From the NCBI GenBank assembly GCA_905178155.1, contig CAJINV010000010.1, positions 295,915-359,914 of the forward strand: 64,000 bases of DNA, given 5' to 3'. Below are positions 1 to 64,000 of the stretch, one piece after another. A program made the translations under genes and the position numbers. Below the pieces are notes generated by a model that was given only the letters and a program-made list of their open reading frames with translations, was not told the origin of the DNA and made no database searches. Origin of the DNA: Amoebophrya sp. A120 (Eukaryota > Protista > Dinoflagellata). Position 1 is the stretch's first letter; each line of letters begins with the position of its first letter.

Positions 1-871
1 AATCTAATTTTTTTGGAACCGTGTCTAATATGCTCTTTAATCTGCATCTAATTTGCAGAGAATCCCCAAACCCCCGGCCGAAAAATCGTTCCCGATTTCC
101 CTGTACAAAATTTCTGCGATTTTGTGCCGTGAAATCGGTAACGATTTTCGGCCGCTGCAAATTAGCCAGCCAATTAGCGCCTATTAGCAGCTACATTAGC
201 TGCAAATTAGGCGCAGATTAGCTGCAGATTAGGTGCAGATTAGAAGCGCCTAAAAAAGGTGCGTTTTCCAATTAGAATTTCAAATTAGAAAATTCCGGGA
301 GGTGTTCCCGGGGTTTTTGGTGGGTATGTCAAACATGGTCGACGCCATGTTTGAAATGCCCGCGCCCAGGACCATCTCCAGACGAAGAAGGAGGAAACCA
401 TAGGACGGGGCGCGAAACTCCCTACCGGGGCAAAGTCCGTCGGCCTGCAACGCCCGGCCCAAAAAACACACAGACGGAAGCCATGCCGGGAGGGTCACAG
501 GCCGAACGACAAACCAGAACACGCCCCAACCAACCGACCACGGCTTCCAGACCGAAGGGAGACGGGCCGCCGAAGCCAATGCCGCAAAGCGAAAGACACC
601 CCCGCCACGAAATCGGCAAAGCCACGAGGCCACGGGCCCGCATTCGAATAGCGGCGCGCCGAATGTGCCCCGTGCGCTTCGCAAGGAGATTCGGCACGCA
701 ACCAAGCCGACGCAAGGGGGCTGCGCACGCTCTCAAATTAGCCGGATTTTAGTTGATAATTAGACCCCGAAGGCGCCCGGGGCTGTCCGCCTGATGCGGC
801 CGCCCCGGGAGAAGCTTAAGGCCGTGAACACAGGCGCCCCCCCCCGTTGTTGTTTCAGCTAATGCGCGGAC

Positions 872-3800
872 TTGGTTGCGCTTTCGCTGGTTTCCCAGGA
901 TTTTCCACGAAAGTCCTGGGAAATTCAGGAAATCAGCACGACAGACGCCAGAAACGATATCGGGGAGGGGCTTCGTTTTTTCAGCGATTGCGGTACGGCT
1001 TCGACCGAAGTTTTGCAAAAGATCGAGGGGAACGGCAATTGTTGCCCTCTTTCGATTGCGGCGGCCACAGGCATCAGCATGCCGAAGGTGAAGCAGTTGG
1101 CGGAGGGTTTCATGGCGGACAAGCGCGAAGAGCTTGGCCCGTTTTGGGTGGGGGAGTACGGAGTGGACGAGCCGGCGGGCCCCGCGGTTTTAGCAGAGCA
1201 GAGCAAGTGGCTGGCCTGGTTGGAAAAACTTCTGCACCCGACGGCAACGGTATGGCTGGGCCACGCATTTTTGGAGGCGGTGGCGAAAGTCATGGACCCT
1301 ATGCGAAAAAATGAGCCCGCCCGCACCTAAAAGAGCCAAGCGGCACGCCGCGCGCTGTCGTTTTTGCGCGGGATGCGGCGCCCGTTTTGCGAAAATTTGC
1401 GACCCGTGCCTCTCTTGTCTCTGATGTGTAGCGGGCTGGTTTGCTTTTTCTTTTGCATAGTGTTGTCGATTCAGATCGAACCCGCCCCCGGTTCTCAAGA
1501 GCAGCCGCAGAGAATCGGAAGCGGCGCGAAGGCGATCCGACTCGAGTACGATGGCCGCCACTACAACGCTTTTGTCAGGCGCGGCGCTGAAGCGAAAGCG
1601 ACCGGGACTTCCTCTGCCAGCCCCGCGCCCCCCGAAACGAAGGCCGAAACGGTTTCGAAAACGCAAGAGGGCGAACCTGTGGCGGCTGGCTTGGCCTCTC
1701 GCAAACGTGCAGCGGAAGCAGATGCGCCCAGGCCGTCGGTTTCGAGCGATGTTAGCTTGGGCGACTCGAGCGAAAGCGATGGGGAGGCTGCTTCGGATGC
1801 AAGCGAGTGCGCGCCCCCCCCACGGAAGCGGGGGCGAAAGTCCAATGCCGGCAAAAATTTTTCTTTGCCCGATGGCGCGACTGAATTCTTGCTGCGGGCT
1901 GCTGACATTGGGGCGGCTTTCAAAACGTTGGGGCTTACCGCGCGGCAGCGGAAGTGGTGGAAAACAAAGAAAAACTTTTTCCGCTTAGCCCCGGGCACGG
2001 GCAAGCTGCAGGTCCGCGTAGAGTTCCAGGGCTACGGACGCAAAACCACCGAGGCGCTGATGGTGTATCCGGATTGGCTTACCGTCATCGGCGCCGACGA
2101 CGACGCGGAAAAACAGCGCATTGCGGCCCTTGGGCATTTGCGGTCGCATGGGGGAATTGAGGCAACTGGGGTGGCCATCCAACAGCTTGGCTTCACGTGG
2201 TGCGGCTTGAAAGAAAGCGCGCGGGTTGCGGTGCAAGCGTGCGAGGCTTGCGCGGCCAACGAAGAACATGCGCCACAGCAGCAGGATTCTTACGCAAGCA
2301 GCACTTTGGCGGCGCTCAAGGACCCCGCCAATGAGTCCCTTCGGCCTTTTGCCTGGGCGGGCGTCGACTGCATAGTTTGCACCCCCTGCGAAAACTCGGC
2401 GCACCGCGGAAAAAATGTCGGGACGCGCTTCGTCGGTTGTTTGAACATGTGCTGCCTCACGACTGGCGCCGTTTGTTCCAAACTGCTGACGAGCTTCGAG
2501 GCGGAAGAGGTCAAGCAAGCGTATCTGGACATGGTCGAGGAACACGGCGCGCCGGATCATTTGAACATTGACAAGGGCACAGAGCTGCAGCAGATAAAGA
2601 ACTGGAGCCAATGCACCTGCTTGACGCGCGACCATAAGTGCGCGACCTTCACCAACGACCCCCCGGTGGGCGCAGCCTTTCGCACGGATATCCGCGAAAG
2701 CCCTCGCGCGCATCCGCAGTCCAATGGTGCCGCGGAAAGTTCTACGAAACTGAAAAAGCCACTCGCCCCATATTTATAAAGGCCATTCGTGTTGCTGGGT
2801 ATGTGTTCGCGCGTGTTCTGCAACGGACTACAACCCGTGGCCACGCATCAGCAACGCATGCAAATTCCTTTTGCAATATGGGGCGGGGGGATTTTTCGGT
2901 GATAACCTACAATGGCCAGCTGAAGCAGCAATTGCGTAAAAGGGGCGGCGAAAAGGATTGGCCTCGCCATTTGCCTGCGTCTGTGGCGGCACTGAACCGA
3001 CGGGCGACGCGGGGCCGTCGGATTCCCGCTGCGAGGCATCTGAGCACGTTTCTACGCCCCTTGCGGGACATCACCGAAGCCACTCTGCATCCCGTGCAAC
3101 GTGCGCCCCCGCATATCGTTGCAGACAAGGGCGCCGCGGCAGAAAGCGCAAGCGCAGCCCCAGCCACCGCACTGGCTGGACCCCCGCCGCAGAATTCCGA
3201 GGAAAGGAAACACGGCGCCGGGGCCGCGGATGGCGAAAGTGATGGCGCTGCTGATTTTGCGGCCGCAACGTTGCGCGGCTCGCTGGCCAGACAGGCGCTA
3301 CGCAATCGCAGCCGCTTCTTTGAAAATCGTGAGGATGGGGGCAGGCTGAAGGACATCAAAAAACTGAAAATTGGGGAACGTGTTTTGTGCAGAAACAGAC
3401 AGAAAAGCCCCGGCTTGGCAACAAAATTCTTGGGGCCTTTCGTCGTTACGCAGGTGAAAGCGCTCGGGGTGGATGCTCACAGCGACGGAGTCCTCGCCGG
3501 CAAGAAACGCGAAACGACGCTGCGCGATGTTCCTTGGAAGGACCTCAAGCGGTGCCCCACGGGCCTCACTCAAGTCGCAGCGCCGCCTGCGCCTCCACCC
3601 GAAACGGCGCCGCCTGCCGCGCCGAATCACGCCCCGCCACGAGCCCAACAAGAAACGGCGTCGGCTGCTGGGCCACCGCCTCCAGCTGCGGGCGACGATC
3701 TTTCCGCGATCGCCGCCGTCGACCCCGCAATGGATCGCGTTTTTGGCTCGGGCTCGCTTCCGCTATTAAGCTCTGCAACACTCGTGCTGGCGCGCATGTG

Positions 3801-4332
3801 GTTGCGCCTTTTTCTCGGTGTCGTTTTTTCTCTTTATGCGCCCAGAAGCATGCTGACCTCTAGTTTTTCTTTGTTGTTTGGCTGCTTGCGTAATTACATT
3901 GCGCCAGTGCGTTTTTGCAGTGCATAAAGGCAAACGAAAGCCTACGTCGACGTCGCCGAGCTGGAAACTGCCGGCCCGAAACAAGTTCCCACGAACATCC
4001 GGGGTTCGGTCACCCGTGTCGAGGGGGCGACGCGCGGAATTCGGATCCGCATTGAGGGCGTTACTGGTGTCAGCATCGTTTGGCGAATTTATGAGGCTGC
4101 ACAAATGGCGCGGCGGCGTGCTCAGCGGTGCCCTTGCGTCGTTTTCATTCCTTTGGCGCTCACGAGAAATTTTCAAGGCGGCCAGTTTCTGCGCATGCCG
4201 GCAACGTGGCGCACGACTGCGATCGAGGCGCGCGCCCCGCCGGAGCTTCAGGAACTGCACCGCATGGCCTCCACGTCCTCCGCCTCGGAGGGGCGCCGGT
4301 CTCTGTCTGCGTTCAAGAATCCCGAGCCCTGA
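872..4332 (+). CDS. Spliced OTU-domain + Gypsy/Ginger-like DDE integrase (putative transposase); 4 readable exons, 5' end not resolved
   Basis: ORFs 872-1330, 1364-2779, 2638-3927 and the open frame 3928-4332 join in frame when the inverted-repeat inserts 1300-1459, 2743-2904 and 3767-3926 are each removed with 5 extra nt (165, 167, 165 nt). OTU motifs: IEGNGNCCPLSIA, WLGHAFLEAVA, IRLEYDGRHYNA. Integrase motifs: H2C2 (GHLRSHGG..FTW..CEAC), RPFAWAGVD, LNIDKGTE, HPQSNGAAE/NGQLK, DWPRHLP, KIGERVL..KFLGPFVV. No RT/RNaseH seen. Confidence 0.8.
1300..1459. mobile_element. Degenerate IR intron 1 of the integrase gene
   Basis: TATGCGAAAAAA..AGCCCGC / GCGGGCT..TTTTGCATA; direct repeat decayed; removal with 5 nt joins the OTU motifs in frame. 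Confidence 0.7.
2743..2904. mobile_element. Degenerate IR intron 2 of the integrase gene (family H-like)
   Basis: GAAAAAGCCACTCGCCCCATATT / AATATGGGGCGGGGGGATTTTTC..GATA; removing 167 nt joins SNGAAE to (Y)NGQLKQQL. Confidence 0.75.
3767..3926. mobile_element. Degenerate IR intron 3 of the integrase gene (family A-like)
   Basis: TAAGCTCTGCAACAC..CTGGCGC / GCGCCAG..TTTTTGCAGTGCATA; removing 165 nt extends the frame to the stop at 4332. Confidence 0.65.
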
Positions 4333-5469
4333 AGAGGGGGAACGAGAAAAGGGGCGCGGCGTCGCTTTTCCGTCCTTGCTTAGCTTCTTGGGCTGTTATT
4401 GCTTGTGCTAGTAGATGCGTCGCGTTCTTCTTACTCGTTTTGTTTTGTTTCGAATGTGTGACTTCTCGCGGAAAACCACATGTGTTATGCTACTTTTATC
4501 AGTCGCTCTTCTCGTCTTTTCTCGTATCTCTTCTTGTGTCGGGTTTGCACTGTTATCAGCTATAATTATTCCCACTAGGAGCGCAGCGCACCGCGCGAGT
4601 TGATTTGAAGCTGTCGCTTCGACCAACGCGCTCTGTTGCTGCACTCCACTTGTACACTATGCGCTTCTTCTTGAATTTTGCGTGCTATTTTTGCACTATT
4701 CTGCTGTCTTCTGTTTCTGCAAACTGTTTCCATTTCCGTACGAAGTACAGCGCGCCCCGCATGTTGATTGACGGCTAGCGCTTTCACCAACTTGCCCCGA
4801 CGCTGCACTTCGCCTGCGAGTTTTCCTTTGCTCGTTTTGTTCTCATACAAAACCTGCACTGCTAATTTGATACGTCCCTGCGTTTTGTGTTTGTGCAAGT
4901 TAAGTTTTGTAGGCTTTATTTGTCAATGTGGAACTCGTTCTGTGTATTTTTGTTTTCCCTATGTTAGCTTTGGCTTTCTCGTTTTCATTCCCTGCATCTT
5001 CACAATCTAAAGAGCGACTTTTTTTTGATCGCGTTCGTCAGTGCGCCAATTTTGTTACAGCAGCTGCAGCTAAGTTAATAGAAGTGGATCGCGCTCGCTT
5101 TCCTGTCGCTACTTTGCTGAATTTTTTTTCCGCTTCCTCGCATTATTCTACTTCGCAGCGCAGCTATATCACAGAAGCGGCAAGCTGAGCTGCTTTGTCT
5201 TTTGAAACTGAATTGCATCGATCTCTACAAAAACACTTGATGCGTTTTGCAATTCATTTTTGGGAAAATATGTTGCAAGGGTTGCTTTTTTGCTTTTGTC
5301 GAATTTGGCTCGCCTGGTGTTCGCTTTCGCTTTTCGGTGCTGCGTAATACGATACGCTGCAAGCTTCGCTGGGTACTCGATACGTATTCTGTTACAATTC
5401 ATCCTATACGACAATTCATCTGGGTGCATGCATGATTGCGATACGAGTACGATACTTTTGCACAGGATA

Positions 5470-8400
5470 TGCGGAAAAAGGGAAGAAACGGCTGCCAGTG
5501 GGAATCGTCTTCAACATCATGATGATCGTGAAGATCCGAGAAGTCCTTACTAGTATCGTCATGGACGGGGGACCGGTGGTGGCAAGGTGTAGAAGTCGTC
5601 GCCGTCGCGCTGTCGTCTCGTCCACTTCCAATTGTATGAAGATCCCCGTGGCCGTGGTCCATATCGAAGATATCAACGTCCTCCTCGTACTCATTGTATT
5701 CGGCCCTACTCCACAATTGCAACACGCGCTCCAGTATCCTCTGCAAAAGTATCGTAGTCGTTCGTAGAAATTGCTGTTTATGCATGACAAATCTTTTTCC
5801 TAAGGTAAAACAGCATTACAAATTTCATTTGTAATGCTGAGCTAATTTGTAATGCAATTTATACGAATACGATGCTTTTGCAGTGCATATCCAACTCTTT
5901 CCGACTCGGAATGTCCGCGAATCCGGCGCGGAGCCGGGTCACGCTAGGACTTGGATGGTGGTCGAAATATGTTTCCCAACTGATTTATTCACTGCAAAAG
6001 GAGTTGCGTTAATCTTAATATGGTCCGGCTTCTATCTTATACAACTCAGGCCGCACTACATCCTGCCTTCGTCAAATACGACATGCAACTTTTATTTCAA
6101 GTCGTTGCAATGAAGCAATTATGCAAGGTGATGAACCCGTCGCGGTTGATAGATGCAAGTCCGAAAAACGATACAGATACTCAATACTTTTGCAAATTGA
6201 ATAAGATCACCACACTGTCCACCGTCAACGGCGTATTCTTGTGCACGTTATCCACTAGCTGAAGCAAATTTTCGTATACAGTCGGGTTCTCCTCGGGATC
6301 GATGTGCAAACCGAGTTGAGAAATGACGGCCGCTGGGGGTCCGAGCATGGAACAACTCAGAAATTCCTGTTTCTGTTTTTTGGTCAGTCGAAATTCTTCC
6401 ATCAAGTGCTTTTTGAGGAGCTCGAACAGGATCAACTCCTTCAATTCCGAGACCGTTTTGCCGTTCCAGACGCTAGGGTGGAGAGAAAGAAGCTCGTCAC
6501 CTGACAGATTGAAAACTAAAAGGTTGGGCGGATGAAGGCGCGTCGTCCCCGTGGCTGAAGATGATTTTTTACCAATTTTCGAATTTGTTGGTCTTGGTGC
6601 TGCTGAAGCAGGACTGGAGCTATAAATGTGATTGGGCCGCTCCCTGTAGTCCTTCTGATGTGCTGTCGTATATGTGACTAGTTGTTGATGTACTCCCTCA
6701 GGATCTCGGCGAAGAGACCCCTGCTCCACCGTCAGGCCAACATTCTTTCCGTCATGATCCTCCTGCTTTCCATGTAGGTGTCCAGCAGCATCTTCGTCTT
6801 CATCTTCCACATCTTCAGCCGCGAGGACCACTCCTGGTAGTGATCGCTCTGTTCTTTTGGTCCCCGGAGCAGGCGGTGGTGGGCTTCCAACAACTACTGC
6901 GGCAGCAACGTGTACTAGCAGCTGCAGGTTGCTCAGCACGACCTCCTGGTGGAGGACGTCGAAAAGAAAGCACACCTCCAGCAGCGGCAGCACTAATGGT
7001 AAGAGGCTCAGCTGCTTTCTTGACGCCATTTTTATCTTCATCAAGGAGTCATGTGCTTTATTGTTGTTCATGTTCTCCCTGCTGCTCACGACCGGCGGGG
7101 TGGACGACTTGTTCTTGGCATGGTACGGAATAGGTGCAGCACCATCGTGATTTGTGTTTTTTCTCTACTTGAGCAAGAACTGCAGCAACAACAGACACCA
7201 CTCAACTACTCAACTTCCACAAAAGGAGACACATAACACACATCAGAGGGGGTTTGTTGGTCTCCGGTCCTCGGTCCTCAGTTCATCCCAAGGCAATAGA
7301 AGACAACGAGAGAAGAAGGGGGAAAGCTCACACACACCAAGGGGGGTTTGTTGGTCTCCGGTCCTACCTCGGTCCTCAGTCCTTCCCAAGGTAATAGAAG
7401 ACAACGAGAGAAGAAAGAAGAAAGCTCACACACATCAAGAAAGGGGGTTTGTTGGTCTCCGGTCCTCGGTCCTCAGTCCATCCCGATGTAATAGAAGACA
7501 GCGAGAGGAGAAAGGAGAAAGCTCACACACATCAAGAAAGGGCTTTTGTTGGTCTCCGGTCCTCGGTCCTCAGTCCATCCCGATGCAATAGAAGACAGCG
7601 AGAGAAGAAGGGAGAAAGCGCACACATAAGAGGGGGTCTGTTGGTCTCCGGTCCTCGGTCCTCAGTCCATCCCAAGGCAATAGAAAGCCGACGAGAGAAG
7701 AAGGGAGAAAGCTCACACACATCAGAGGGAGTCTGTTGGTCTCCGGTCCTCGGTCCTCTGTCCTTCGCAGGGTAGTAGTTGGCGAGATAAGAAGGTAGAA
7801 AGCCCACACACATCACAGGGGGCCTGCTGGTCTCCGGTCCTCGGTCCCCGGTCCATCGCAAGGCAGTAGATGGCGAGGCAAGAAGGTAGACAGAAGGCCA
7901 ACACACAGCAAAGGGAGGTTGTTGGTCTCCGGCCCTCGGTCCATCACCGGGCAAGATCCGACGGGGAAAGAAGGTAGAAAGCCCCCACACAAAAAAAAGG
8001 GGGCCAATTGGTCCACGGCCCCCCCTCAGTCCATCGCGGGGCAGCAGCTGGCGAGATAAGAAAGAGGGCAGAAAGAGCACACAAATGCGCGCGGGGTGTT
8101 GGTCTCCGGCACTCGGTCTGCAGTTCATCGCGGGGCGGCGCCTGGCGAGACAGATAAGAAGGCAGAAAGCCCCCAAGCAGGGGCCTGCTGCTTTCCGGTC
8201 CTCGGTCCCGAGTGAGTCTGTAGAGCGATCAGACCCGGCGAGCGTGATTGCTAGCATGGTACAAAGGCCAGGCATTTACGACGGAGCCTGTTCGTCTCCG
8301 GCTCTCGGTCCTCCGTCCCTCATGGGGCGGCGCACCACTTAGAGAAAAAGGTCGAAGGCCTACGGACATCGGCGGAGGCGTGCGGGTCTCTGGTCCTCGG

Positions 8401-11400
8401 CCCTCCGTGCCTCCCGAGGTTGGTTGGTAATGTCTGAGTTGGCGCAAACAATACGCGTCGCGCTAGGCAGCAGGGGCGGCGGCCGGCCCGATTGCTTTCG
8501 TTCGGCCTGATGAGCGGGGGGAGCGGCGGCCGCTCCCCCCGCACAGGCCCCGCCCCCGGACTTTGTTTGTTCCAGCGGCCGCGGCCGTGACGCACATGAA
8601 TGACGTCGCGGAGGGAGCCCGGGCGCAACAGGAGGCGACCGAGCGCCGCCATTTTTCCTCGCCTGGCGGGCGCGCCCGTACATACTAAAGGAACAGGCGG
8701 CGAACTGAAGCGCCGCGGCGCCCCGGCCCCCGTTGCTTTTGATCACACAACCGGCAACCGAGCGACACGACGGACGTGAGCCGGCGCGCGCTCACATACA
8801 GCGCCAGGGCCATACGGCTTTCATTGATTCGCCTGGCTCTGAAGGCGAAGAGGTTCACTGCGCGGGAACAAAGATAGCGACGCACAGCGCGCGCCCGGCC
8901 TCGCTTGCGATCTGCCAGGCTGTGAACCACGCGCGCGCGCTGTTGTTCTTTGCGCCCCCCTGCATTTCAACACGAAACGCGCCACCTGGCAGATTGGTGG
9001 CCGCCCACCGAAATCACTAGCCGCCTGCGCCGCCTTCGTCATCGCCGGAACTTCGAGGCGACGGGCCGGAGCTCCGGGGGCTGCTGTCCGTCGTTGTCGC
9101 TGGGAGAAGGGTCCGAGGCAGTATCTGCGCCGGCCCCTTCGGCTTCCACCCCCGGCCGGTTGGCTTCGGGCTGTCCGATTACGGGCGAAAGGAAAAAAAT
9201 CCAGCCGGTTTGTCAGCCTTCAGCATACATTTCTGTACCGCCCAGCAGGTATCCGCCCCAATCAAATGAAAACGACCCGCGTGGCCTTCGTTTTTTTTTT
9301 CCGCGGCTCGCCTTTCAGTTGCTTGTCGGCCGCGACCTGGTCTGAAAGATCAGGAAGAGCACGCGGGTCGGGACTTGGAACATTTCAAAGTGGCGGGACC
9401 ATCTTGATCCATTACGGGCATGAAGCTGATCGCACTAATCAGAATCGCGCCGGCCCATGTGCTTTTTTTTTGCTGGGCCGCGCCTTGCGGAGACGGCCCT
9501 ACTCAAAGCCTAAAAAATTTACGGTCTTCGCCATTTCCGGCGCAGGCTTTCGCTTCTGGCTGCGCCCCCTTTTCATCTTCGCTGCCGTCTGTTGTGTTGC
9601 GGCCGCCCACCCATGGCATTTCCGGAGATTGGGAGAAAGCCGTCGCGGCGTCGCCCTTGTGTGCGAGACCTTTGCCGCGCTCTAATTCGGGGGCGCTTTC
9701 ACGCTCTTGCGTTTTGGGCTTGCGTTTGTGTCTTGCTTTTTGTTCCTATTTTTTGTTCTTCTTTTTTGCTGTTATTTTTTTGTCTTACTTTTTCGCCCTA
9801 CTTTTTTGGGTTCCTTTTGTGTCCTACTTTGTTTGCAGTTTTCTTTTCTTGCTTTAGAGGCCGCGCGATTAATGGGCCTCCTTTTCAATAACAAAAAGGA
9901 GGGGGGTAGGTGCGGTCGGTCGTCTGGCGGGCCGTATCCACAGATGGCCGGGCCCATCCGGACCCGACCAGTATTCCCTTTTCGGACTTCAAAAATCTAA
10001 GGCCACACCCTCCCCGCCCCGGCGAAAAAAAAATCTGTTTTGCTTGCTGCGGTTTCTCGGCTGGTTTGTTGCGCGGTTTCTGCGGTGTAGCTGGAACAGA
10101 ATGAAACAGAACGAAAGATATTTCTTGGGCGCGCGCGGCGCGCGCGTGGATCGGCATACGGACGCAACAACAGAAAACGCTTCAAGCGGGCGATGCGCGC
10201 GCGCAAACTGAAAAAAAGCTCGCGGCGCGCGCTGGTGCGCGCGCGCAGCGGAGAACATGCAGCGGAACACGTGCCGCCCCAATGGTCGAAGTGGCCGCCT
10301 CAGCTTTTGCAAATGCGGGCGGTGCTGCGGTGGTCGCTTTAACAACCCGAGGGCGGCTGCGCAGTGCTGCGCTACAAGTAGCTGCCCCCTGGTGGTCCAT
10401 TTCTGATATGGCCTCTGAGTAGGCCCCTAAGCAATCCTTTAGCAATGCCTTTAATTCTGCCTTCTGATTCCGCCTCTGGAATTCTTCTAATTCTTTTGCC
10501 CACGCGGCAGCTTCGAGGCTTCCAAAAATCCGCTAAAGCTGCCGGGTAGGCGAAATCACGCACGAAGTCGCAGCTTCGCGACTTTAGAAGATGAAAGAGA
10601 AGCACTTCGGACGGCAAAACCGGAAACGGAACCGGAAGGATCTTCCGGTGAGCCGGAAGATTCCTCCGCTTGCTTCGGCTTCACGGGACCACGTAAGATC
10701 CGGCAGCTGTAGATATCTGCCTGCGGCCTGCGGGAGATGATGCGCATGCTCGAGAGCAACGAGCATCATCTTCCGCGAAACAACAAGCAAACGCCTGCCC
10801 TCATATTTCCGCCCGCACTGCGAAACGCCCAGCAAGGTGGTATCTGCCTGGTGCCTCTACCTTCTATCTTGCCCCGCCATATATTGCTAGCCTCGAGATG
10901 AACGGAGGCCCGGGGACCGAAGGGCAACAACCTCCTGCGCATGTGTCTGGTGCTTCTACCTCCTTGTCTCTTCACGTATTACCTCGCGAGGATCTGAGGA
11001 CCGAGGACCGGGACCAGCAGCCTCCTTCTTATGTGTCTGGTGTTTCTACCTTCTTATCTCGTCAGATATTGCCTCGCGATGAACTGAGGACCGAGGACCG
11101 GAGGCCAACCGCCTCCTTCTTATGTCTCTGGTGCTTCTCCCTTCTTATCTCCTCATATACTGCCTCGGAATGGAGTGAGGACCGAGGACCGGAGACCACC
11201 AACCTCCTTCTTATGTGTCTGGTGCTTGCTTCTCCCTTCTTATCTCCTCACATTCTGCCTCGTAATGGAGTGAGGACCGAGGACCGGAGACCAACAACAT
11301 CCTTCTTATGTGTCTGGTGCTTCTCCCTCCTTCTCTCCTCATATACTGCCTCGTGATGGAGTGAGGACCGAGGACCGGAGACCAACAACCTCCTTCTTAT

Positions 11401-11720
11401 GTGTCTGGCGCTTCTCCCTTCTTATCTCCTCACATATTGCCTCGCGATGGACTGAGGACCGAGGACCGGAGACCAACAGCCTCCTCGTTATGTGTGTCAA
11501 GTGTCTACCACTTTATGTAGTGCGTTACTTTAAATGAGCTTCCTTTAAGATCTTCTGTTGGTATTTTTTCAATTCCTTTTAGAGCAAAAACACGAAACAC
11601 GATGGAACTGCACCTATTCCGTACCATGCCTTGTTCTTGCTCGATGGCGTCATTTTTGTCTTCCGCGTTCTGTTGACCTTGATGACGTGGTCGTTGCGCG
11701 GCACGGGAGATAGAAGTAGT
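5470..11720 (-). CDS. Multi-exon hypothetical protein, interrupted by the foldback element; continues beyond the left edge
   Basis: 302-codon ORF 6181-7089. Frame KTKMTPSSKN|KSSTPPVVSSREN is continuous across the 7117-11630 insertion. Exons ~5890-5950 and 5470-5734 join as RKELE|RVLQLW across element 5735-5889. No recognisable domain. Confidence 0.5.
5735..5889. mobile_element. Introner family A
   Basis: TATCCTCTGCAAAAGTATCG..CTTTTGCAGTGCATA; flanks TCCAG/TCCAA. Confidence 0.85.
7235..8410 (+). repeat. Left subterminal tandem array (~90-100 bp unit), decaying inward
   Basis: Recurring core TTGGTCTCCGGTCCTCGGTCCTCAGTCCATC. Confidence 0.9.
10895..11500 (-). repeat. Right subterminal tandem array (~90 bp unit), inverted relative to the left array
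   Basis: Recurring GAGGACCGAGGACCGGAGACCAAC. Confidence 0.9.
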
Positions 11721-12985
11721 TGATTCTTCACCTACTGGCAGGATGTTGAGCAGCTTGCTTGCGCTTGGGTTCTTCCTTGCAACTGCAACTCCCATAAGTC
11801 GTTTCTCTCTATTGAAAAATTAAGTACTTACCTCGCGAGGACGTTCTGTTGGTCGTGATCGTCGTGGTGCTTTTGTTCGAATACAACAAATTGCAACTTA
11901 AGTTGTAGCTCAATAGGTCAGGCGTCGACCGGAAATATACTTAGAAGCACTGCAAGTAGGAATAACTAGAACTACGCGACATCGTCCTCGGGGATCTTGA
12001 TGTAAAGTAGCTGCCCTCTCGGATCACTATTATATTCCTCGCGACCGTAGTTGTGCACGACTTTTCGTCTTGTTCATCTTCGCTGAGGTGGATGCAAGAC
12101 CAGAAAGATGAAGACAGAGCACAGATGAGGATTGATAGGTATGCTTGCTTCCTCTAAATATGCTTTGCGGGTTAAAAACAATAGCGCGAGCTTTGTTCTT
12201 TTTACATATATGATTCAAGATTATTGTCCACCACCGTTTGCCGATGGATAACTTAAGTAGTAAACAAGAGCAGATTTTTCTTCACTCCTGTCAGTGAGCA
12301 ACTGGAACGAGATCCTCGTGATCATAATTTATCTTTGCCAAGAAAACACCGAGCGAGTGCAAGAAATATGTGTACATATGTCTGAACCTTTTTGACTTTG
12401 GATCAACATCATCCAATCTCAATCATGATCCGCGTCACAACAAGACAAACAGGAACATCTTCCAAAGACACCGGTAGTCGTGAAGGATCTCATCACTTTC
12501 GTCGGTTTCTGTCCTTCTTCAGTTGTCTCGGTCTCTTCCTTTGTATATATAAAAGCAATCGTACACGACACTTGGTGAAAAATCTTAGACAGGTAGGTAG
12601 TTGTAGTTTCCGGGAAGGAGGGCGGCAGCGGAAGCGAAGGCGAGACACCTGCTCCCCCGACCTACATAGTGCATGCCCCGATCGCTGCATGAAGTAAGTA
12701 GCAGTATCGAAAAGTAGAGACAGAGCGCGGTGGTGTTGTTGAAAGCCGAAGAGCAAGCTGTAGTAGTAACGTTCACATACGAACAAGAGAAGGACCACGG
12801 AGAGCCAACATGGTCGTGGTGGGTTTGGTTTGTCATGGTCCCTCCTGCCTTGTCCCTTCTTGCTGGCCATTATTTCAACCTCTAAGTCTCCACGGAAAAG
12901 CAAAGACGTAGAGGCGCCTTTAACTTATAGTGTGTGACATGCATGGAGTCACTCCGAATAAGCAGGCACTTCTATTTGTATTATA

Positions 12986-14206
12986 TCACGCATGAGCTTG
13001 GCCGGCTGCGTTCGGATCCCCCGCCGCCATCTTCGCAACGCGCAATTCCTGGAACAAGGCCGATAACCGCTCGAAGAAGCTCTCCAGATCCGCGTTCAAC
13101 CTGCGCCGCAGCGCCCGGGCCGTTTCCTTGCCCGAGTGCAGTTCCGCAACATGCACCGAATCAACCTTCTCCTGTAGCATATCCGCGGCGGCTTCAATCT
13201 GCGCAAGATCGGTGGTTGCCTTTCCGTTCGTGATGTGGCCAGCCCAAAAATCTGCCTCGGTCACGTTCGTGCGCTCCACTAAGGCGTTGTACTCCGTGGC
13301 CAGATCCTGCAATACTTCCAGCTTTTCCCGTGAGGGTTGCGACAGCTGCCGGCGCAACTCCACGCGCTCCGCCGGGGAAGAAGAAGAACTCTGACGAGCA
13401 TCGTCTTGTTGCTCCTTCACGGACGGAGAACCCTGACGATGGTTATCGTCTTCATGATCTTGTTCTTCGTCCACATCCACAGCGCCCTCGTGATCTTCTT
13501 GCTTCACGGAGGACGGAGAACTCTGACGAGCATCGTCTTGTTGCTCCACGGACGGAGATGAACTACCCTGACGATGGTCATCGTTTTCATCTTGTTCTTG
13601 GTCCACGTCCACAGAGCCCTCATCCTCTTGCTCCACGGACGGTGCCACGACCAGGTTTGTGTCGCCGAGGGCCCCTGATGAGGATGTCAACTTTTGAATC
13701 TCTCCCTCTCTGAACGACCGCAAAGCACCGATTTGCGCGGCGGTCTTATCTCTGGGTGCTGGGACTGGCGACTTAAGAAAGTCGCGCGGCTTGGCGTCGG
13801 CCCGTTGTTGAGCAGGCGTGTTGACATCGTCCCGCACCTTATGCATCGGCTCAAGTTGTAATTGTATCTCCTGCGGTACATGATATAGACCTGGAAAGTC
13901 TACTAAGTCAGCATTTGAAGAAGTAGATGAAGATGCTGCAACAGCCTCCGCTCCTGAGTTTCGAGTAGATGCAGATAAGAACGCAGCTCTACTAGACGAC
14001 GCTGCTCCGCGTCTGCTGGGCGACGTTGAGGACAGAGATGAAGCAGCGACAGCGGAAGCAAGGCTGAAGTTCGTCGTGCTCAGCAGGGGCAAAAGCATAG
14101 AGCAGCTCTGGCCGAGTTGTTGGAGGACGAGAGCAGAAATAGACCACGCTCCTGCAGCAGTAAAAGCTTTACCACGAGGATGCAGCATCTTGATGTCGAT
14201 GTCCAC
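12986..14206 (-). CDS. Intronless 406-aa protein with hydrophobic N-terminus, acidic repeats and a C-terminal BAG-like helical domain
   Basis: Long ORF; SSPSVEQQDDARQ-type repeats; C-terminal LAQIEAAADMLQEKVDSVHVAELHSGKETARALRRRLNADLESFFERL resembles BAG helices 2-3. Confidence 0.6.
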   Translation of the reverse strand: MDIDIKMLHPRGKAFTAAGAWSISALVLQQLGQSCSMLLPLLSTTNFSLASAVAASSLSSTSPSRRGAASSSRAAFLSASTRNSGAEAVAASSSTSSNADLVDFPGLYHVPQEIQLQLEPMHKVRDDVNTPAQQRADAKPRDFLKSPVPAPRDKTAAQIGALRSFREGEIQKLTSSSGALGDTNLVVAPSVEQEDEGSVDVDQEQDENDDHRQGSSSPSVEQQDDARQSSPSSVKQEDHEGAVDVDEEQDHEDDNHRQGSPSVKEQQDDARQSSSSSPAERVELRRQLSQPSREKLEVLQDLATEYNALVERTNVTEADFWAGHITNGKATTDLAQIEAAADMLQEKVDSVHVAELHSGKETARALRRRLNADLESFFERLSALFQELRVAKMAAGDPNAAGQAHA

Positions 14207-23000: not shown

Positions 23001-26000
23001 ATCTGGCTGGCCTTGGCGATTTTGAAAATCCGGACCGCGGCGTGCTTGGACTGAAACACGATTTTGTACCGCCCCGCGAACTCCGGATCGCCGTCGCGGT
23101 ACCCGGTGGTAGCGTGGTACACGAAGGAATTGGCCATCATTTTCGAGGGCTGCCCGTGGCCCTCCCACCCGAATTGCCAGCACATCTTGTCGTAGCAGTG
23201 CCCCTTGTAGACCGAGTTTGCGATGCGAGCCATGTGGGTGGCTTTTGAGAGATCGTCATCACACCAAACCAACACGTAGTCCGCCCAGTGCCGCATGATA
23301 ATGTGAGACTCCTCGACGGGGGAGGTGATGGTCATTCCCAGAGACGTATCCACTGCAAATATGTGGTCTACTGGCTGTGGAAGGTTACGAAATGTTTGTC
23401 ATGCATTTATTTCTGGATCGCACAGGTGGCCTCTAATTCTGCACGCGTCAGCATCTACAAGATTTGCACCGGCCTCTTGCTCTTGATCATGCCTGTTCCG
23501 CATGATAAATTCCCCACTTGCGACGCAGCTTTTGGTGCTCATGCAACACAACTTTTTCAGTGATCCAGATGATTGTGCATCACCAGTTGACACTCTTCCA
23601 GGTCCAGACCCAGACATATTTGCAATGCATAAAAAGCGAGGTGCTCGTGGTTCCACGTGTTGCCATCGGCGACTGTGACACGCTTGGAGATACCGGCCAG
23701 CTGGTACCCGTAGTCCCACCTGAGAACGATTTTTTCACCAAGAATTTTTGTCATGCGCGGCATCGAAAAAGAACAGATACCTTTTTGTCAATCGTGCATG
23801 ACAGATTCACGCACTTCCTTGCAATTGATTTGTATTCAAAAATCAATGTTCATCAATTACCACGACAAGATCCTTGCGTCCTCCTTGGTATTGTCTCGGA
23901 TCCACAGGTATGCCTCTCGGTAATCGTCCTTCAGCGTGCCGTCCTGCAGTGTCGAGACGATCTTATGCATTGCAAAAGCATCGTACTAGTAGAAATCGCA
24001 TCACAAATTCGGCCAGCATGACAAATGGAATCTGTAATGCGGATTTGACTTGACAAAAAAATTTGTAATGCATAAATGCGATTAGTACGAGTACGATACT
24101 TTTGCACAGGATAGATCTGTGGGTGGGACAACCCGTACTGGATCATGTTGTAGCCTGCACCGAGGAAATGTGAAAGTGGACAACTCCTCCTCCTCCCCCT
24201 CATTCACATCATGGTAGAAACAGCAACACAAGCGCCGGCGGAAATGCAGCTTTGGCATGACAAATTCTACTGCAGCTCACAGGATAATGATAGTGCTGCT
24301 TCGGCTTCCCCTTCCGGAATAATTTGCTATGCAAAAAGTGGCACAGGGCAGCGACTGGAATTGGGGTTTTTGCATGACAAACGAGGGGGAGGGGGGCGGA
24401 GGTGACCACTCTCATAAAAAATGCTCCATGTGACTCGGGAACCCGTGTCAAATGTAAAAATGTCTGGGTCTGGAAGATTGCCAGGTTTGTCATGCACATT
24501 TTGCATGACTCCTGATGTCTGTGATGCATGCCCTAGCAACATCACAGATTTTGTGAGGGCTTCCTGCTGATGCCTATACCGCATGACAAATGCTCTTTCC
24601 GTGTACTAGCGAAACTTGGACTCTCTTTGCTGCTCATGCAATACAGATTTTTTTAGAATCCAAAATCAGCATGACAAGTTGGATTCTTCCAGACCCAGAC
24701 ATTTTTACAGTTGATAACCCGTAGCGGAACACCATCAGAATCGTGACCAGTGCCCGTACCGAGAGGAGCGAAAGCGTTGCCTATGGAGAGAAAAAAGTTC
24801 GTCACAGTCACTAACTTGCAGGCTTTGCATTACAAATTTTCTCAGCATCACAAACTTTCCTTGTATTGCAGAAACACTAGGGAAATCCCTAATGAAGTTT
24901 GGCTGTGATGCATTTTTAAGCATGAGAAACAATTTTCTATTGCAAGAATGCGCATGAGTGATCGTGACGAACTTTTTTTCTTTGATATTGCCGCTTGAAA
25001 TGGTAGTCTCTTCGCGGACGAGGAGGAGGGACTGCTACTAGAGGCCCCTGTTCTGCTGATCGTGGAGAGAGGACCCAGCTTCGTCGTTATGCAATACAAA
25101 TTTACCTCCGTAGAAGTAGACGTACAAGAAGTAGGCAAGTAGATGTAGGAGTAGATGCATCACAAAAAAATTTGCGAACTTGATGAATCAATGGACACGT
25201 CGAAACTTGTGATGCTAGATGCGGTTGGGCAAAAGTTTTCTCATGTGGTCCTTCCACGTCCTCGTCCTGTGAGGTATTGTACTAGAGTTCCGATGGATAC
25301 TAGTCGTTGTGCCACCAGTGCTAGAAGAGGAAGCTGCAGCACCCTCCTTCTTTCCCTTCAGTGGGGTCTCGTTTCTGTCCTTCTTCGCAACTGGCGGCGG
25401 GGTTTTCGCGGCCTTATCGACGTCCTCTCTCGAGCTATCTTCGATCGCCAAGGAAGAGTTCGGCTCCGCTCGGTAAAAGGCGCCGTATCGCCTGCAAATA
25501 CGTCTGAGTCTGTAAAAGTGCAACGTTTGTGATGCACACTTTACATGACTCATGATGTCCTCTCTGATGTGTGTCATAGCATCACAGATTTTCTGAGTCC
25601 TTTGTGATGCCTATCCTGCATGAGAAATGTCGATCCCACAAGGCACAAATTGGACTCCTCTTGCTGGTCATGCAAAACAGATCTTTTTAGAATCCAGAGA
25701 CAGCATCACAACTTGCAACCTTCCAGACCCAGGTATATTTGCAATGCATACGCCGGTGCTGTTAGCGAAAATGGTCGCCGCCTTCTTGTCGTAGCCGAGC
25801 AGGTTATGAAACTACACAATTCCCTTTCCCCTTATTTTTGCATGGAATGAACAGCAACACAAACACAAATACATGTGGTGGACGCTGCGCATTTACAAAT
25901 TTCTCATGCGCTGGGTGTAGTACTGCTCGGACTTCCAGAATTTGTATTGCAGACAGGGCCACAAGGCAGCAAGAGCAACTGGAAGATTTGGGAGAAGTAT

Positions 26001-49100: not shown

Positions 49101-52100
49101 GACCGGATCTGGCTATACACTGCAAACATATCAGGGTCTGGAAGAACCTTCTATAGACTAGCCTCTCCAGTACCAAGATGCAGATGGGAGACGGTAATGG
49201 TAACAGACTGCACGTCGCAGCAAATAAGCATGAAAAATGTTATGCACAGATTCAGGAGTGATTCGAAAACGAAATGGTGCGCAATACAGGTAGTTTCTTG
49301 TTCTTTTATTCTTCCAGACCCAACCACGTTTGCAGTTCATACTGCCCCGAGAGAGACAAATCTTTCTGCTCCTGCTTGACCAAGTCGGGCATGCCGTTGT
49401 CGAGCGCCGTCGCCGTATGGGTGTGTCAGGATCGAAATCGTCAACGTTGAAATAATTTCTCACGCATAAATTGCAAGGCATGAAGTGCCTCTCTTGCAGG
49501 GACGGCAAGTGAGGCCGACTGTCAGCCTGTTTGGGGTCTGGTGCGCTAGAGCTGCTAAAGTAGCAGGACAAAAGACGCCTTCTGTCCCTGAACGGCATGA
49601 CAAACTGGATTTAGATGGTGCCGAAATTTGTCATGCGCCGCTTGAAAACTGGGCTTCCAACTGGTATCGATTTTAATTTTATGCATTACAAGTTATTTCA
49701 ACTTTGTCGATTTCGATCCTGACAATCCCATACTCCGCGTCGCCATCGTAGTGTTTTTGGCCCTTGACGACATTAGTCACATTTGAAAAGACATCATCAT
49801 CCGTCACGGTTGCTTGCTGTTGTGCCGGCGCTTTCGCATTACCGGGTGAAGGAGCTGGACCTGGACCTGGAGCTGTTTGTTCTAGTAGAGCGGTCGGTCG
49901 TAGTTCCGGCGCCAGTCGTATGCATTGCAAATACGTCTAGGTCTGGAAGGATGCCTGCGAGGTGTGTCATGTATATTTATTTAGTACATGACCCATGATG
50001 TCTGTGATGCATGCCTGAGTAATATCACAGATTTTTTGAAGGCGGTTTCATGCCTCTTCCGCCGGAGAACCAACTTCGTCTCCAAGTAGAAAAAAGAACA
50101 GCCTGACTCTTCTTGCTGCTCATGCAATACAGATTTTTTTAGATTCCAAAGGTAGCATCACAAGTTCCATCCTTCGAGACCCAGACATATCTGCATTCCA
50201 TAAGCCGTGCGTGATCGTCGTTTTCCCCGAAGACCTCGAAGTCCGGGACGAAATTTGCTATCCACTGCAAATTATGCATTGCAAAAGTATCGTACTCGTA
50301 CTCATTGCAGTTATGCATTACAAATCTAGTTGCTAAGGTAAATCAGCATTACAAATTTAATTTGTAATGCTGTATGGCGGGAGCAAAGTGATATTTTTGA
50401 AAATAATAAAATTTTGATCGATGGGTATTTAGGCTTTTGCATTTAGCACACTGTAAAACCATCTATAAAAGGCGCCAATTAACTATATGATTAAGCTAGC
50501 TAGCTAAGGAAGGTCCGGCGGAGCGGCATCAGCACGGAGGAAGGGCGGCCCGGTCGGTTACGGCTGTGGGCACAGCCGTGGAGCAGCAGGTCGTGGAAGA
50601 CGATGTCGAAGGGCCGGCCCCGGACCTTCCTTAGCTAGCTACTTTAACATGGTGCCTAGCTATGCATATCATAAAAATGTAATTAGGTAGTCCCATCGTA
50701 GTATGCATTTTTACCCTTTGTTGAAGTTCCGGGACCCCGATTATGATTGGGCTTGAAAGAAAACCGAAATATTTCCAACGCAGGACAAAAGTTTGGGGGC
50801 GGGCCGAAAAGAAATTGCGCGCAAGCCTCACACACGAGCAACAGTATGGCTTGAATGTGACTAGCGGGCTTCTCGTGCTTCAGGCCTGGAAGAAAACACA
50901 AGCAACCACATGCGAAATCCTTGAAAGTCGCGCGCTCCGTGCGTTTTCGACAACGACTGTCCCCAATCCGCACGCTATCACGTGTTCGACTCATGCTAAA
51001 GCGGGAATTTTGCAAAATGTGAAAAATCGATTTTTCAAAAAAAAAATTTCAAAGGAATTCCAAAAAAATTCCAAAAAAATTTTCGGCGAGCGACAAACTC
51101 TTCAATTTCCGCCCGTGTTTGACGCATTTTTTGCGATGGGTATGAAAGTGGGTAATTTTTCCGAGCTTTTTTGGGGGTGGCAAAAAGTAAATCAGAAAAC
51201 CTGTGGGCGGGCCATGTTATTGCCTGCAAAGCCCGCCCTGTGGCGCATTTCTGAAGAAATGCTGCGCTACAATGTCTAGCGACGCCCCACCCAGAAAGGA
51301 GGTGGAGCCCGATGTCTTCGCGCCTAGGTCAAATTCGCAGGCCGACGCTAATCATAGAAAACGGGGCCAATTGTGGCCGATCGGCTAACGCCTCAAGATG
51401 TGGCCCAATAAGGTCGCCCGGCGCGAAGGCGCTGGAAAAAATTCAACTTGGAAAATTTTTTTCGTTTTCTTTCCGAGAATCTGCCCTCATCATCCGGAGC
51501 CTCAACCTTTGGTTAAAATTTTATTATTTTCAAAAATATCACTTTGCTCCCGCCATATGCTGAGCCAATTTGTATTGCGATTTACACTAGTACGATACTT
51601 TTGCACAGCATACAAATATCTCTAGGTCTGGAACGTTGTGATGCATCTCAGTGAATAGAAAACACACTGCAAGTTTTATGCACCGCGAAGCATGACAGAT
51701 TTACCCGTGTCCCCGTGTTGCGTAATATTCCGCATGAAAAAAATGAAATCACACAGCGTTTTTGCATGACAGACAAGAGGAGTTCTTGCTGGCCACGCAA
51801 TACAGAGGACCTGAGTGGGATCATGCCAGACTACCATGGCAAACTTTTACTTTGCATCCTTCCAGATATATTTGCAATGCATATTTGCTGCCGCGAAGCG
51901 AACCTGCGTCGGGAGGAAAAGTAGCATGCCGACGCTCGTGGCGAAAATCGTACGGAGCGACGCGGTATGAACTGCAAAAGTATCGTACTTGTTTGTATTG
52001 CACTCATGCACGACTACAAATTTTTTTCTTAAGGGAAATCCGCATTACAGTTTTTATTTCCCATGCTGAGGAAATTTGTATATGCAATTTATACGAATAC

Positions 52101-61577: not shown

Positions 61578-64000
61578 TATCAAATGTAAAAGTGTCTGGG
61601 TCTGGACGAATGCAATTACTATTGAAACTGCAGCAACTACCCAAATCTGAGTTTTCTACCCCGGATCCAGGGTAGGTTCCAGGGTAGGTTCCGGGGTAGG
61701 TAACACGAGGGGACAGTGGATTTAAGAGGGGGGGGGGGTACAGCCTACCCAGGAACCGACCCAGGAACCGACTCAACCCGACTCCTCAACCGATCGATAC
61801 AGCTCGGGGAAAAAAACAAACACGAGCTGTGGAGTCGGGTGAAGAGTCGGGTAAAAGTCGGGCCCAGGGTAGGTTTTGAGTCGGGTAAAGTCGGGTAAAT
61901 AGCTCGGGAAGGGCAAAGCGACCTTACCCGACTCTACCCGACTCCAGCCGATGCGATATCCTTTGCCGATGTGTGTGGGTCTGGAAGAGGCCAATTCTGT
62001 CATGCATACTTTGCATGATCCATTATAATGCAAGCTATTTTGTCATGCATATTTTGCATAATCCACTCCGTCATGCATATTTTGCATCAGCCCAAGTCTG
62101 TCATGCATATTTTGCATGATCCATCACAAATCACAAATGGAAGCTGGATGCTCCGAGATCCACACACACCGAAGGCGGTCATCAAATGCCAAGGCGATCA
62201 CAAAACGCAAAACAATTTATGAAGATGAAAACTAAGAATAGCGCTGTTTCACGCGTAACGGAGCTGCTAGATGACTATGGCGCAGCAAAAAGATGAAGAG
62301 TTTCTAAATGGCGGCGCTTTATTTGCCACGCGTCTCCATGTCCATCTTCATACTAAAGTCATTCACTTCCAGCAGCCAGCGAAGCCGGCGCCAGGTTTTT
62401 GCCGCTTTCCCGCATGTGGGCACGGAGCAAAACCGCGCCGAAAAGCCTCGCGCCTGTCTTTTTGAAACAAAGCAAGCGAGCCCGGCGCTCAGTTTTTTAC
62501 GCTTTTCCGCATGGGGACACGGAGCAAAATCGCGCCGGAAAGCTTTGCGGTTGGCCTGCTAGCAGCTAGCGAATGAAGCCGGCGCCAGGTTTTTGCCGCT
62601 TTCCCGCATGGGGGCACGGAGCAAAGCCACGCCAAAAAGCTTCGCGCGTGGCTTTTTGGAAGCAAGCGAAGCCGGCGCCCGTGCTTTGGCGCTTTTCCGC
62701 ATGGGGCGCCAGAAAGCTTTGCGGCTGGCCTTCTACCACCTAGCGAAGCCGCCGCCAGGTTTTTGCCGCTTTCCCGCATGGGGGCAGGAGCAAGACCACG
62801 CCTGCCACAAAGCGCCGCGGCTGGCTTTTTGGGAGGGTGAACGAAGCAAGCGAAGCCGGCGCCCATTTTTTCACGCTTTGCCGCATGGGGCCACGGAGCG
62901 AGCAAAGCTAGCCGCGCCAAAAAGCCTGGAGCCTCGCTCCCGGCTGGCTTTGTGAAAACAAGCGAAGCCGGCGCCCATTTTTTGGCGCTTTCCGCAGGGG
63001 GGAACGGAGAAAAACCGCGCCGAGAAGCTTACCGCTTCGCTTTCTAGCTAGCAACTGGCGAAATCGGCGCCAGGCTTTTGCCGCTTTGCTTCCCGCATGG
63101 GGGCACGGGGCAAAACCACGCCAAAAGGCTTCGCGGCCGGTTTTTGGTAGCAAGCGAAACCGGCGCCCATTTTTTCACGCTTTACCGCATGGGGGCGCGG
63201 GGCTTAGCCGCGCAAAAAAGCTCGGCGGTTGGCTTTCTGGCAGCTAGCGAAACCGGCGCCAGGTTTTTCCCGCTTTCCCGCATGGGGGCACGGAGCAAAA
63301 CCACGCCAAAAGCAAAAGCTTCCCGGCTGGCTTTTTGAAAGCAAGCGAAGCCGGCGCCCATTTTTTGGCGCTTTTCCGCATGGAGGCACGGAGCAAAACC
63401 GCGCCGCAAGGCCTTGCGGTCGGCCTTCTAGCAGCTAGCGAAAACGGCGCCAGGTTTTTGCCGCTTTCCCACATGGGGGCACGGAGCGGAACCACGCCAA
63501 AAAGCGCCGCGGCTGGCTTTTTGGATGGAAGCAAGCGAAACCGACGCCGATGCTGTGGCGCTTTCCCGCGTGGGGGCACGGAGCAAAGCCGCGCGAAGCT
63601 TTGCGACCGACCGAGCGGCTGGCTTTCTAGCAGCTAACGAAAGCGGCGCCAGGCTTTTGCCGCTTTCCCGCATAGGGGCACGGGGCAAAACCACGCCCAA
63701 AAGCTTCCCGGCTGGCTTTTTGAAAGCAAGCGAAGCCGGCGCCCATTTTTTGGCCGGCGCTTTTCCGAATGGACGCACGGAGCAAAACCGCGCCAAAAGG
63801 CCCCGCGGTCGGTTTTCTAGCAAGCAGCTAGCGAAGCCGGCGCCGGGTTTTTGCCGCTTTCCCGCATTGGGGTACGGAGCAGAACCACGCCAAAAAGCTT
63901 CGCGGCTGGCTTTTTGGAAGCAAGCGAAACCGGCGCCAATGTTTTGGCGCTTTTCCACATGGGGGCACGGAGCAAAGCCGCCCGCGCGAAGCTTTGCGGG
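61578..64000. mobile_element. Oversized intron/element opened by an unpaired family-B TIR, open at the right edge
   Basis: TATCAAATGTAAAAGTGTCTGGGTCTGGA at 61578 adjoining an exon; no closing TIR in the window. Confidence 0.55.
62375..64000 (+). repeat. GC-rich tandem satellite, ~95-bp monomer in alternating variants (~190-bp dimer)
   Basis: Recurring GCGAAGCCGGCGCC(AGGTTTTTG/CATTTTTT)..CGCTTTCCCGCATGGGGGCACGGAGCAAAACC. Confidence 0.92.

Follow-up and report, generated by a model that had tools for sequence, protein, structure and literature searches.

A divergent Ginger-like transposase gene in Amoebophrya sp. A120 as a candidate autonomous partner of family-A introners

Ginger1 DNA transposons have been described (PMC2836005) with TGTNR ends, terminal inverted repeats (TIRs) of 40–270 bp, 4-bp CCGG/CCGT target duplications, and an OTU domain at the C-terminus of the transposase. 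The introners of Amoebophrya A120 were reported by Farhat 2021 (PMC7789003) to carry ends of TAT, seven nucleotides and AAA (TAT-N7-AAA), direct repeats of 3–5 nt, hairpins, and non-canonical splice sites; according to the same report, no transposase was found in A120 and general transposase-mediated mobilisation was ruled out. Supplement file 8 of Gozashti 2025 (PMC12130899) labels A120 family 38 (808 bp), noted in that study for its likeness to Ginger, as "Ginger, 5-bp TSD, TA/TA termini" (TSD, target site duplication), and the enzyme class was thus anticipated; across 56 of the 58 A120 rows of that file, most entries read "TIR DNA, Unknown", and no row describes an autonomous TIR element that encodes an integrase. 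No description of an autonomous integrase element for these introners was found in the portions of the literature that were available. Here we describe a gene for an integrase-type transposase at positions 872–4332 of a 64,000-nt window, which is the whole stretch of DNA analysed (A120 contig CAJINV010000010.1, positions 295,915–359,914, forward strand). It belongs to a unit present in several copies, the visible end of which is the terminus of one introner family, family A. This unit represents a novel form of integrase-type DNA transposon and is a strong candidate for the autonomous partner of the family-A introners.

The gene shares with Ginger1, as described in PMC2836005, a single transposase without reverse transcriptase (RT), H2C2 and DDE motifs, a GPY/F motif, putative introns, and an OTU-like accessory domain. 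It departs from that description in its visible end, which is TAT (TATCC) and not TGTNR (the left end lies beyond the window), and in the unbiased 5-bp duplications of its candidate partner introners, which are 4-bp CCGG/CCGT in Ginger1. Furthermore, the OTU-like motifs are N-terminal here whereas OTU and Ulp1 domains are C-terminal there, and the putative introns are non-canonical. Of the Ginger1 YPYY motif before the finger, only a YP dipeptide is present ~25 residues upstream. In regard to Ginger2/TDD-4 (PMC2836005), the shared features are protist occurrence, H2C2 with DDE, and the 5-bp duplication of TDD-4/5; Ginger2 is described with TGTNR ends and without GPY/F, whereas a GPF motif and a TAT end are found here. 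Among defined integrase-type superfamilies that have TA..TA ends, IS3EU/GingerRoot (PMC10045372, PMC6839031) comes closest by its description, and it resembles the present system in its integrase-like DDE and TA..TA termini (the right end here and both ends of the partners), but it has 6-bp duplications and no HHCC, whereas HHCC and GPF are present here and the partner duplications are 5 bp. The original prediction, made from the letters of the window, called the enzyme Ginger-like: the resemblance (H2C2, DDE, GPF, no RT) stands, and so does the N-terminal position of the OTU motifs, whereas the termini, duplication length, and OTU position are not those of Ginger1. The element is Ginger-like by resemblance and, by the published definitions, lies outside Ginger1, Ginger2, and IS3EU/GingerRoot.

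The window contains 57 TAT..ATA introner candidates, some of them internal duplicates, compared with 2–5 in shuffled windows, which agrees with the ~60 introners originally counted. Perfect 5-bp duplications flank 26 of the 57, and another 10 have duplications with one mismatch. These candidates resemble the A120 introners described in PMC7789003 in their TAT-N7-AAA ends, short direct repeats, hairpins, and putative non-canonical splice sites, and 627 of 736 introner ends fit TAT-N7-AAA; judged by this motif, the host is likely an A120-like syndinian. A family-A end (at least 16 of 20 nt identical) was present in 11 of the 57 entries; the other families of the window have only the TAT-N7-AAA motif in common with family A. 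Scanning for the family-A terminus gave 130 loci (L001–L130), all from one related assembly, hereafter the relative. After 24 of the 219 full-length family-A copies in the relative were set aside for ends other than TAT..ATA, a perfect 5-bp duplication was found at 143 of 195, a 4-bp duplication at two, and a 6-bp duplication at none. The target duplications of introners sharing the family-A terminus showed no sequence preference. Of 364 young sites, 300 kept an open frame when the element and 5 nt were taken out, compared with 257–268 for frame-shifting lengths (100-nt flanks; 60-nt flanks were uninformative), which fits precisely spliced insertions in exons. The terminus patterns had no match in viral or prokaryote genome contigs.

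Longer insertions are also present among the introners. Inside the family-A introner 50273–51612 of the window sits a TAT..ATA element of 1185 nt (50373–51557), flanked by a perfect TGCTG duplication; it is a longer non-autonomous member of the TAT..ATA class. In the relative, family-A introners at L013, L035, L038, and L076 are broken by insertions, and those in L035 and L038 appear similar.

The unit that encodes the transposase ends in a family-A terminus at 5427–5469. This terminus is identical over 28 of 28 nt to the window introner ends at 24113 and 43203, and the same 28-nt identity extends to 87 of 140 TATCC-type termini; past nt 43, identity is 27%. The 128 nt further inward (5300–5427) are not an introner interior, giving a value of 31 that 69 of 300 shuffles equalled, versus 61–82 for true interiors. 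Lone ends are rare: only 7 of 298 family-A termini, this one included, lacked interior or partner motifs within 400 nt, and the relative had no mid-contig solo ends of family-A type among 265 profile matches. No repeat was detected between 4333–5427 and 1–862, so that no long terminal repeat (LTR) pair is in view, and the left end lies beyond the window. Contigs from the DNA runs X1 and X2, which are one sample and possibly the window's own source, covered 1–5440 in overlapping sets ~97–99% and 83–90% alike, showing that the unit is multi-copy. The flanks (5445–5825, 5835–7136, 11610–13414, and 13518–14000) were identical and at a depth of 26–30, and identical single-copy DNA begins at 5445. 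In another copy, one X1 contig tracks the window as far as 5439, after which it closes with a variant of this family-A terminus. Beyond the terminus, a minus-strand frame stays open across the introner at 5735–5889 when this is taken out with 5 nt, and reaches the element end; because this frame, continuous across the neighbouring introner, meets the end, the element appears to be inserted in a host coding exon.

Because it has both a gene for an integrase-type DDE transposase and the family-A terminus at its end, this unit is the likely autonomous partner of the family-A introners. An autonomous transposon and its miniature inverted-repeat transposable elements (MITEs) typically share only the terminal repeat. 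The same is stated in PMC7789003. We therefore favour, as the probable explanation, that the unit is an autonomous integrase-type DNA transposon, that the family-A introners are its MITEs, and that its message is matured by hairpin-intron splicing. The enzyme had been proposed as a candidate mobiliser of all ~60 introners. For family A this idea is now stronger than first argued, because the visible end of the unit is the introner terminus, and a second copy is alike; the remaining families share only TAT-N7-AAA with it. The further copies and ends that had been anticipated were found in part, as a multi-copy unit in X1/X2 and a second copy with the family-A terminus; the left end was not seen.

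The catalytic residues of the spliced product are spaced D(67)D(54)E. The HHCC finger matched Pfam zf-H2C2 at an E value of 1e-4, which is under the curated cutoff, and a language-model search of the core (ESM Atlas) led to H2C2/rve clusters (0.92). An exhaustive HMMER search of 1.84 billion representatives returned a sole homolog, P0001, a 478-aa metagenome protein from an ENA contig; its alignment with the spliced product spans 451 residues (25% identity, E 4e-17). The two-sequence profile of the gene and P0001 matched the foamy-virus integrase (E 2e-4), which was the best structure match. Word-index searches gave no relatives of the core or the last exon and none of P0001 beyond itself, and locus scans of viral and metagenome contigs gave no relatives of the gene. 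The gene was overlooked before because it is very diverged (one homolog in 1.84 billion) and broken by non-canonical introns. P0001 carries HHCC, D(63)D(46)E, and GPY, and the termini of a related element may be visible on its 7.8-kb contig.

N-terminal to the integrase, a Cys loop, a W..H..LEA.A motif, and an HY motif occur in the order of the OTU protease consensus, in which a G(D/N)GNC Cys loop is followed by a WG-type helix motif and an HY motif. OTU PF02338 was the only named family in the ESM Atlas search (14 of 30 matches, 0.91; cluster 28% PF02338). These motifs and the language-model look-alike search suggest that the N-terminal domain is OTU-like. Thus, the OTU, H2C2, D-D-E, and GPF motifs all lie where they had been placed, and what did not follow is profile support for the first two, the H2C2 match being sub-cutoff and the OTU-like domain having no Pfam or PDB match. 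The last exon had no Pfam matches, homologs, or fold matches (Z 3.3 at best in the fold search), and our presumption that it forms an OB-fold is unsupported. Single-sequence AlphaFold models were of low confidence (predicted local distance difference test scores of 35 and 42).

As predicted, no RT or RNase H was found: the in-frame stretch of ~300 codons before the finger is OTU-like and low-complexity, the upstream frames have no Pfam match, and no upstream RT/RNase H with LTRs was found in the upstream frames within the window. A different origin, as the 3' portion of an LTR retroelement, from a Polinton-like element, or by domestication of an integrase gene within a duplicated segment, is very improbable. 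Such an origin would agree with the Gypsy-type HHCC and GPF, the foamy-virus structure match, a purine run directly after the stop (4332–4354), and a left part beyond the window; however, the stretch ahead of the finger encodes neither RT nor RNase H, the upstream frames give no Pfam matches, no repeat links the tail with 1–862, old introns are kept, and the unit ends in a TIR.

A single frame of 986 codons, from 872 to the stop at 4330–4332, is obtained once each of three inserts with TAT/TAC...ATA ends is taken out with 5 nt (Table 1), and the exons, of 110–424 codons each, are stop-free. The fused frame of ~990 codons foreseen by the original prediction is thereby confirmed, but its removal of 5 extra nt at each insert is fixed only at junction 2, where no other choice lets P0001, which lacks the insert, align without a gap; by frame alone, −1, +2, +5, or +8 extra nt are all possible. 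Position 872 is TTG, and the first in-frame ATG (1079) lies downstream of the OTU Cys motif. An ATG at 862 is out of frame by one; the absence of base 966 from an X2 contig would connect that ATG to the frame. Because no in-frame ATG precedes the Cys motif and the X2 contig lacks base 966, the window copy may be frameshifted or misassembled near 966 and possibly damaged, without a clean start codon.

Stop-codon reassignment, reported for another Amoebophrya (PMC11453091), was rejected as an explanation of the interrupted frame, since the exons are stop-free and insert 2 shifts the frame in the window copy. Further upstream introns at 606–758 and 795–959 were rejected for weak folding (z −1.8 and −1.4) and no family matches. 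The open frames 276–752 (plus strand) and 280–732 (minus strand) had no Pfam matches. At 159–785, a ~85%-alike copy shows no net indel over 627 nt, which is a hint of coding sequence upstream of the OTU exon.

Table 1. Features of the transposon unit and its right flank (window coordinates).
Feature	Position	Strand	Basis or remark
Visible part of multi-copy transposon	1..5469	+	left end beyond window
Open frame with N-terminal half of OTU-like domain (GNGNC 1028; W..H..LEA.A)	863..1299	+	motifs, ESM Atlas
Insert 1 (160 nt), old introner-type hairpin, interrupts OTU-like domain	1300..1459	+	in-frame TAA 1328
Exon: OTU C-half (HYN 1559), low-complexity linker, HHCC finger (2135-2251), D2366, D2570, E2735	1465..2742	+	
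Insert 2 (162 nt), decayed relative of ~320-nt TAT..ATA introner family, one codon past catalytic Glu	2743..2904	+	
Exon: remainder of catalytic helix, GPF (3433), Pro/Ala-rich linker	2910..3763	+	aligns to P0001, pairwise E 6e-5
Insert 3 (163 nt), old hairpin	3764..3926	+	TAA at 3925
Last exon, ~133 codons	3932..4332	+	without Pfam match, homolog or fold match
T-rich 3' tail; subterminal repeats: two copies of ACAATTCATC, TIR-like words at 5348 and 5373	4333..5426	+	
Right TIR = family-A introner terminus (TATCCTGTGCAAAAG...)	5427..5469	-	
Predicted right copy of 5-bp target duplication, TGCGG	5470..5474	+	inferred from 5-bp rule
Presumed host exon, frame reaching element end	5475..5734	-	no Pfam match
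Young family-A introner (155 nt), example of putative non-autonomous partner	5735..5889	.	

Inserts 1, 2, and 3 fold end to end with z values of −3.2, −4.9, and −5.3, and for each of them none of 200 dinucleotide shuffles was as stable. The TAT-N7-AAA motif is present at all three right ends and at none of the three left ends. Compared with 368 young elements, insert 2 is akin to a ~320-nt introner family and shortened (nhmmer E 1e-5; 61 matches), insert 3 had a single weak family match (E 0.02), and insert 1 had none. Of the five positions of the flanking 5-mers, one agrees for insert 1 and two agree for each of inserts 2 and 3, which indicates that the inserts are old. Insert 2 is absent from P0001, and insert 3 is located after the entire integrase. 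No insert-free copy was found, as none of the four contig joints listed in the DNA runs skips an insert. On this sequence evidence, the inserts are probably old introner-type hairpins, only insert 2 being tied to a known introner family.

The copies of the unit differ in a manner that follows the exons. Among the listed substitutions in 1900–2737, 8 of 10 were synonymous versus 34% expected for transitions (p 0.004); elsewhere in the exons 7 of 21 listed were synonymous, and in the last exon 0 of 4, all being non-synonymous. These counts rest on 40 of about 450 differences between copies. The listed in-gene indels, 12 of 15 being the basis for their placement, fall in inserts 2 and 3 (2765, 2856, and 3876) and at base 966, with none in exons 1465–4332. 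The unit is multi-copy with exon-biased conservation.

The RNA runs were uninformative on the splicing and expression of the gene. Run X4, the one run in which the organism is represented, gave 2972 reads at 12143–13543 and none on 1–12142, including the presumed host exons; runs X3 and X6 gave no reads, and X5 gave 8 reads on an introner. The segment 12143–13543 is the only part of 1–14000 covered by X4, with most reads at least 99% alike and an oligo-dT-primer loose end at 13418.

A number of observations weigh against the favoured reading. The junction 5427–5428 reads CA, a typical integrase end, at the point where the family-A similarity stops. The window shows neither the left end nor a duplication belonging to the element itself, and the second-copy terminus is a loose end of one contig, among the loose ends listed, from runs that are one sample. 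Other elements do insert into family-A introners (window 50373–51557; L013, L035, L038, and L076). No related genes were found by tblastn in 0.69 Mb around the family-A introners of the relative (130 loci). Within the gene, the OTU-like domain lacks a Pfam or PDB match, no in-frame ATG stands ahead of its Cys motif, and the 5-bp duplications of the three inserts are gone. Insert 2 plus 5 nt is 162 nt in another copy and stop-free on the listed differences (at least 2–5 substitutions being unlisted), an in-frame stop-free state seen in 8 of 568 young cases. The D–E spacing of 54 exceeds the canonical 35 of DDE integrases.

The CA, the insertions into family-A introners, and the left end beyond the window would also be expected if an unrelated TG...CA Ginger-like element had jumped into a family-A introner, in which case 5427–5469 would belong to the target and the introners would be moved otherwise; HHCC and GPF integrases are described as normally having TG..CA ends (PMC2836005). 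We consider this unlikely, since a second, diverged copy has the same terminus in the same register and shares its 12-nt spacer variant, which occurs in only 15 of 140 termini, and TIR-like words occur subterminally at 5348 and 5373.

The link to family A could also be real and the dependence on splicing not, with functional copies reading through in-frame inserts or starting elsewhere and the window copy being a decayed pseudogene. Each insert plus 5 nt has a length divisible by three, namely 165, 162 (in the other copy), and 168/171 nt; in addition to the stop-free insert 2 and the position of insert 3, an in-frame Met lies inside insert 1. This alternative is nevertheless quite improbable. 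Read-through would lengthen the protein by 54 residues next to the catalytic Glu, an addition not found in P0001, inserts 1 and 3 contain TAA, the hairpins were maintained though the duplications were lost, the listed indels are restricted to the inserts, and the stop-free exons of 110–424 codons do not indicate stop reassignment.

In the favoured scheme of an autonomous transposon with MITE introners, the spliced enzyme (HHCC, D-D-E, and GPF) would bind the ~28–43-nt terminal repeat, excise any DNA between two such ends, and reinsert it with a 5-bp stagger. The host would remove the element and one duplication from the RNA and thereby restore the exon, so that insertions in coding sequence would be nearly harmless and pile up as introns. 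The three inserts would derive from older introners that entered the transposase gene, after which the duplications and the ability to move were lost but the hairpin was retained, and expression of the transposase would likely depend on non-canonical introner splicing. The OTU-like domain may serve as an accessory deubiquitinase. The other TAT-N7-AAA families may be moved in trans by this enzyme or by sister transposases. A more far-reaching version, which we regard as possible but doubtful, is that a new HHCC and GPF lineage (TAT..ATA, 5-bp TSD, and N-terminal OTU) drives tens of thousands of Amoebophrya introners and that the unit, at >5.4 kb, is a giant introner lying within an exon of the host. 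The transposase gene would then be gated by three domesticated introners, the spliced form being active and retention of the in-frame insert by the Glu giving a DNA-binding dead form, in a feedback loop with the splicing machinery.

Two other repeat-rich segments were observed in the window. At 7117–11630 there is a 4.5-kb foldback-type element with GG...CC ends, long inverted arms of ~95-nt tandem repeats, and an 8–9-bp duplication (TTGTTCTT), which adjoins a minus-strand open reading frame (6181–7164) and which we presume to resemble a Mutator-like non-autonomous element. Satellite-like, GC-rich tandem and inverted repeat arrays occupy the right end (61660–64000).

A gene ending in an introner terminus makes the spread of the non-canonical Amoebophrya introners testable with a defined protein and DNA end. 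The mix of ends, duplication length, and domains found here bridges Ginger1 and IS3EU/GingerRoot. If the favoured reading is true, intron gain would be coupled to the splicing pathway through a transposase whose expression requires that its own class of cargo be spliced out.

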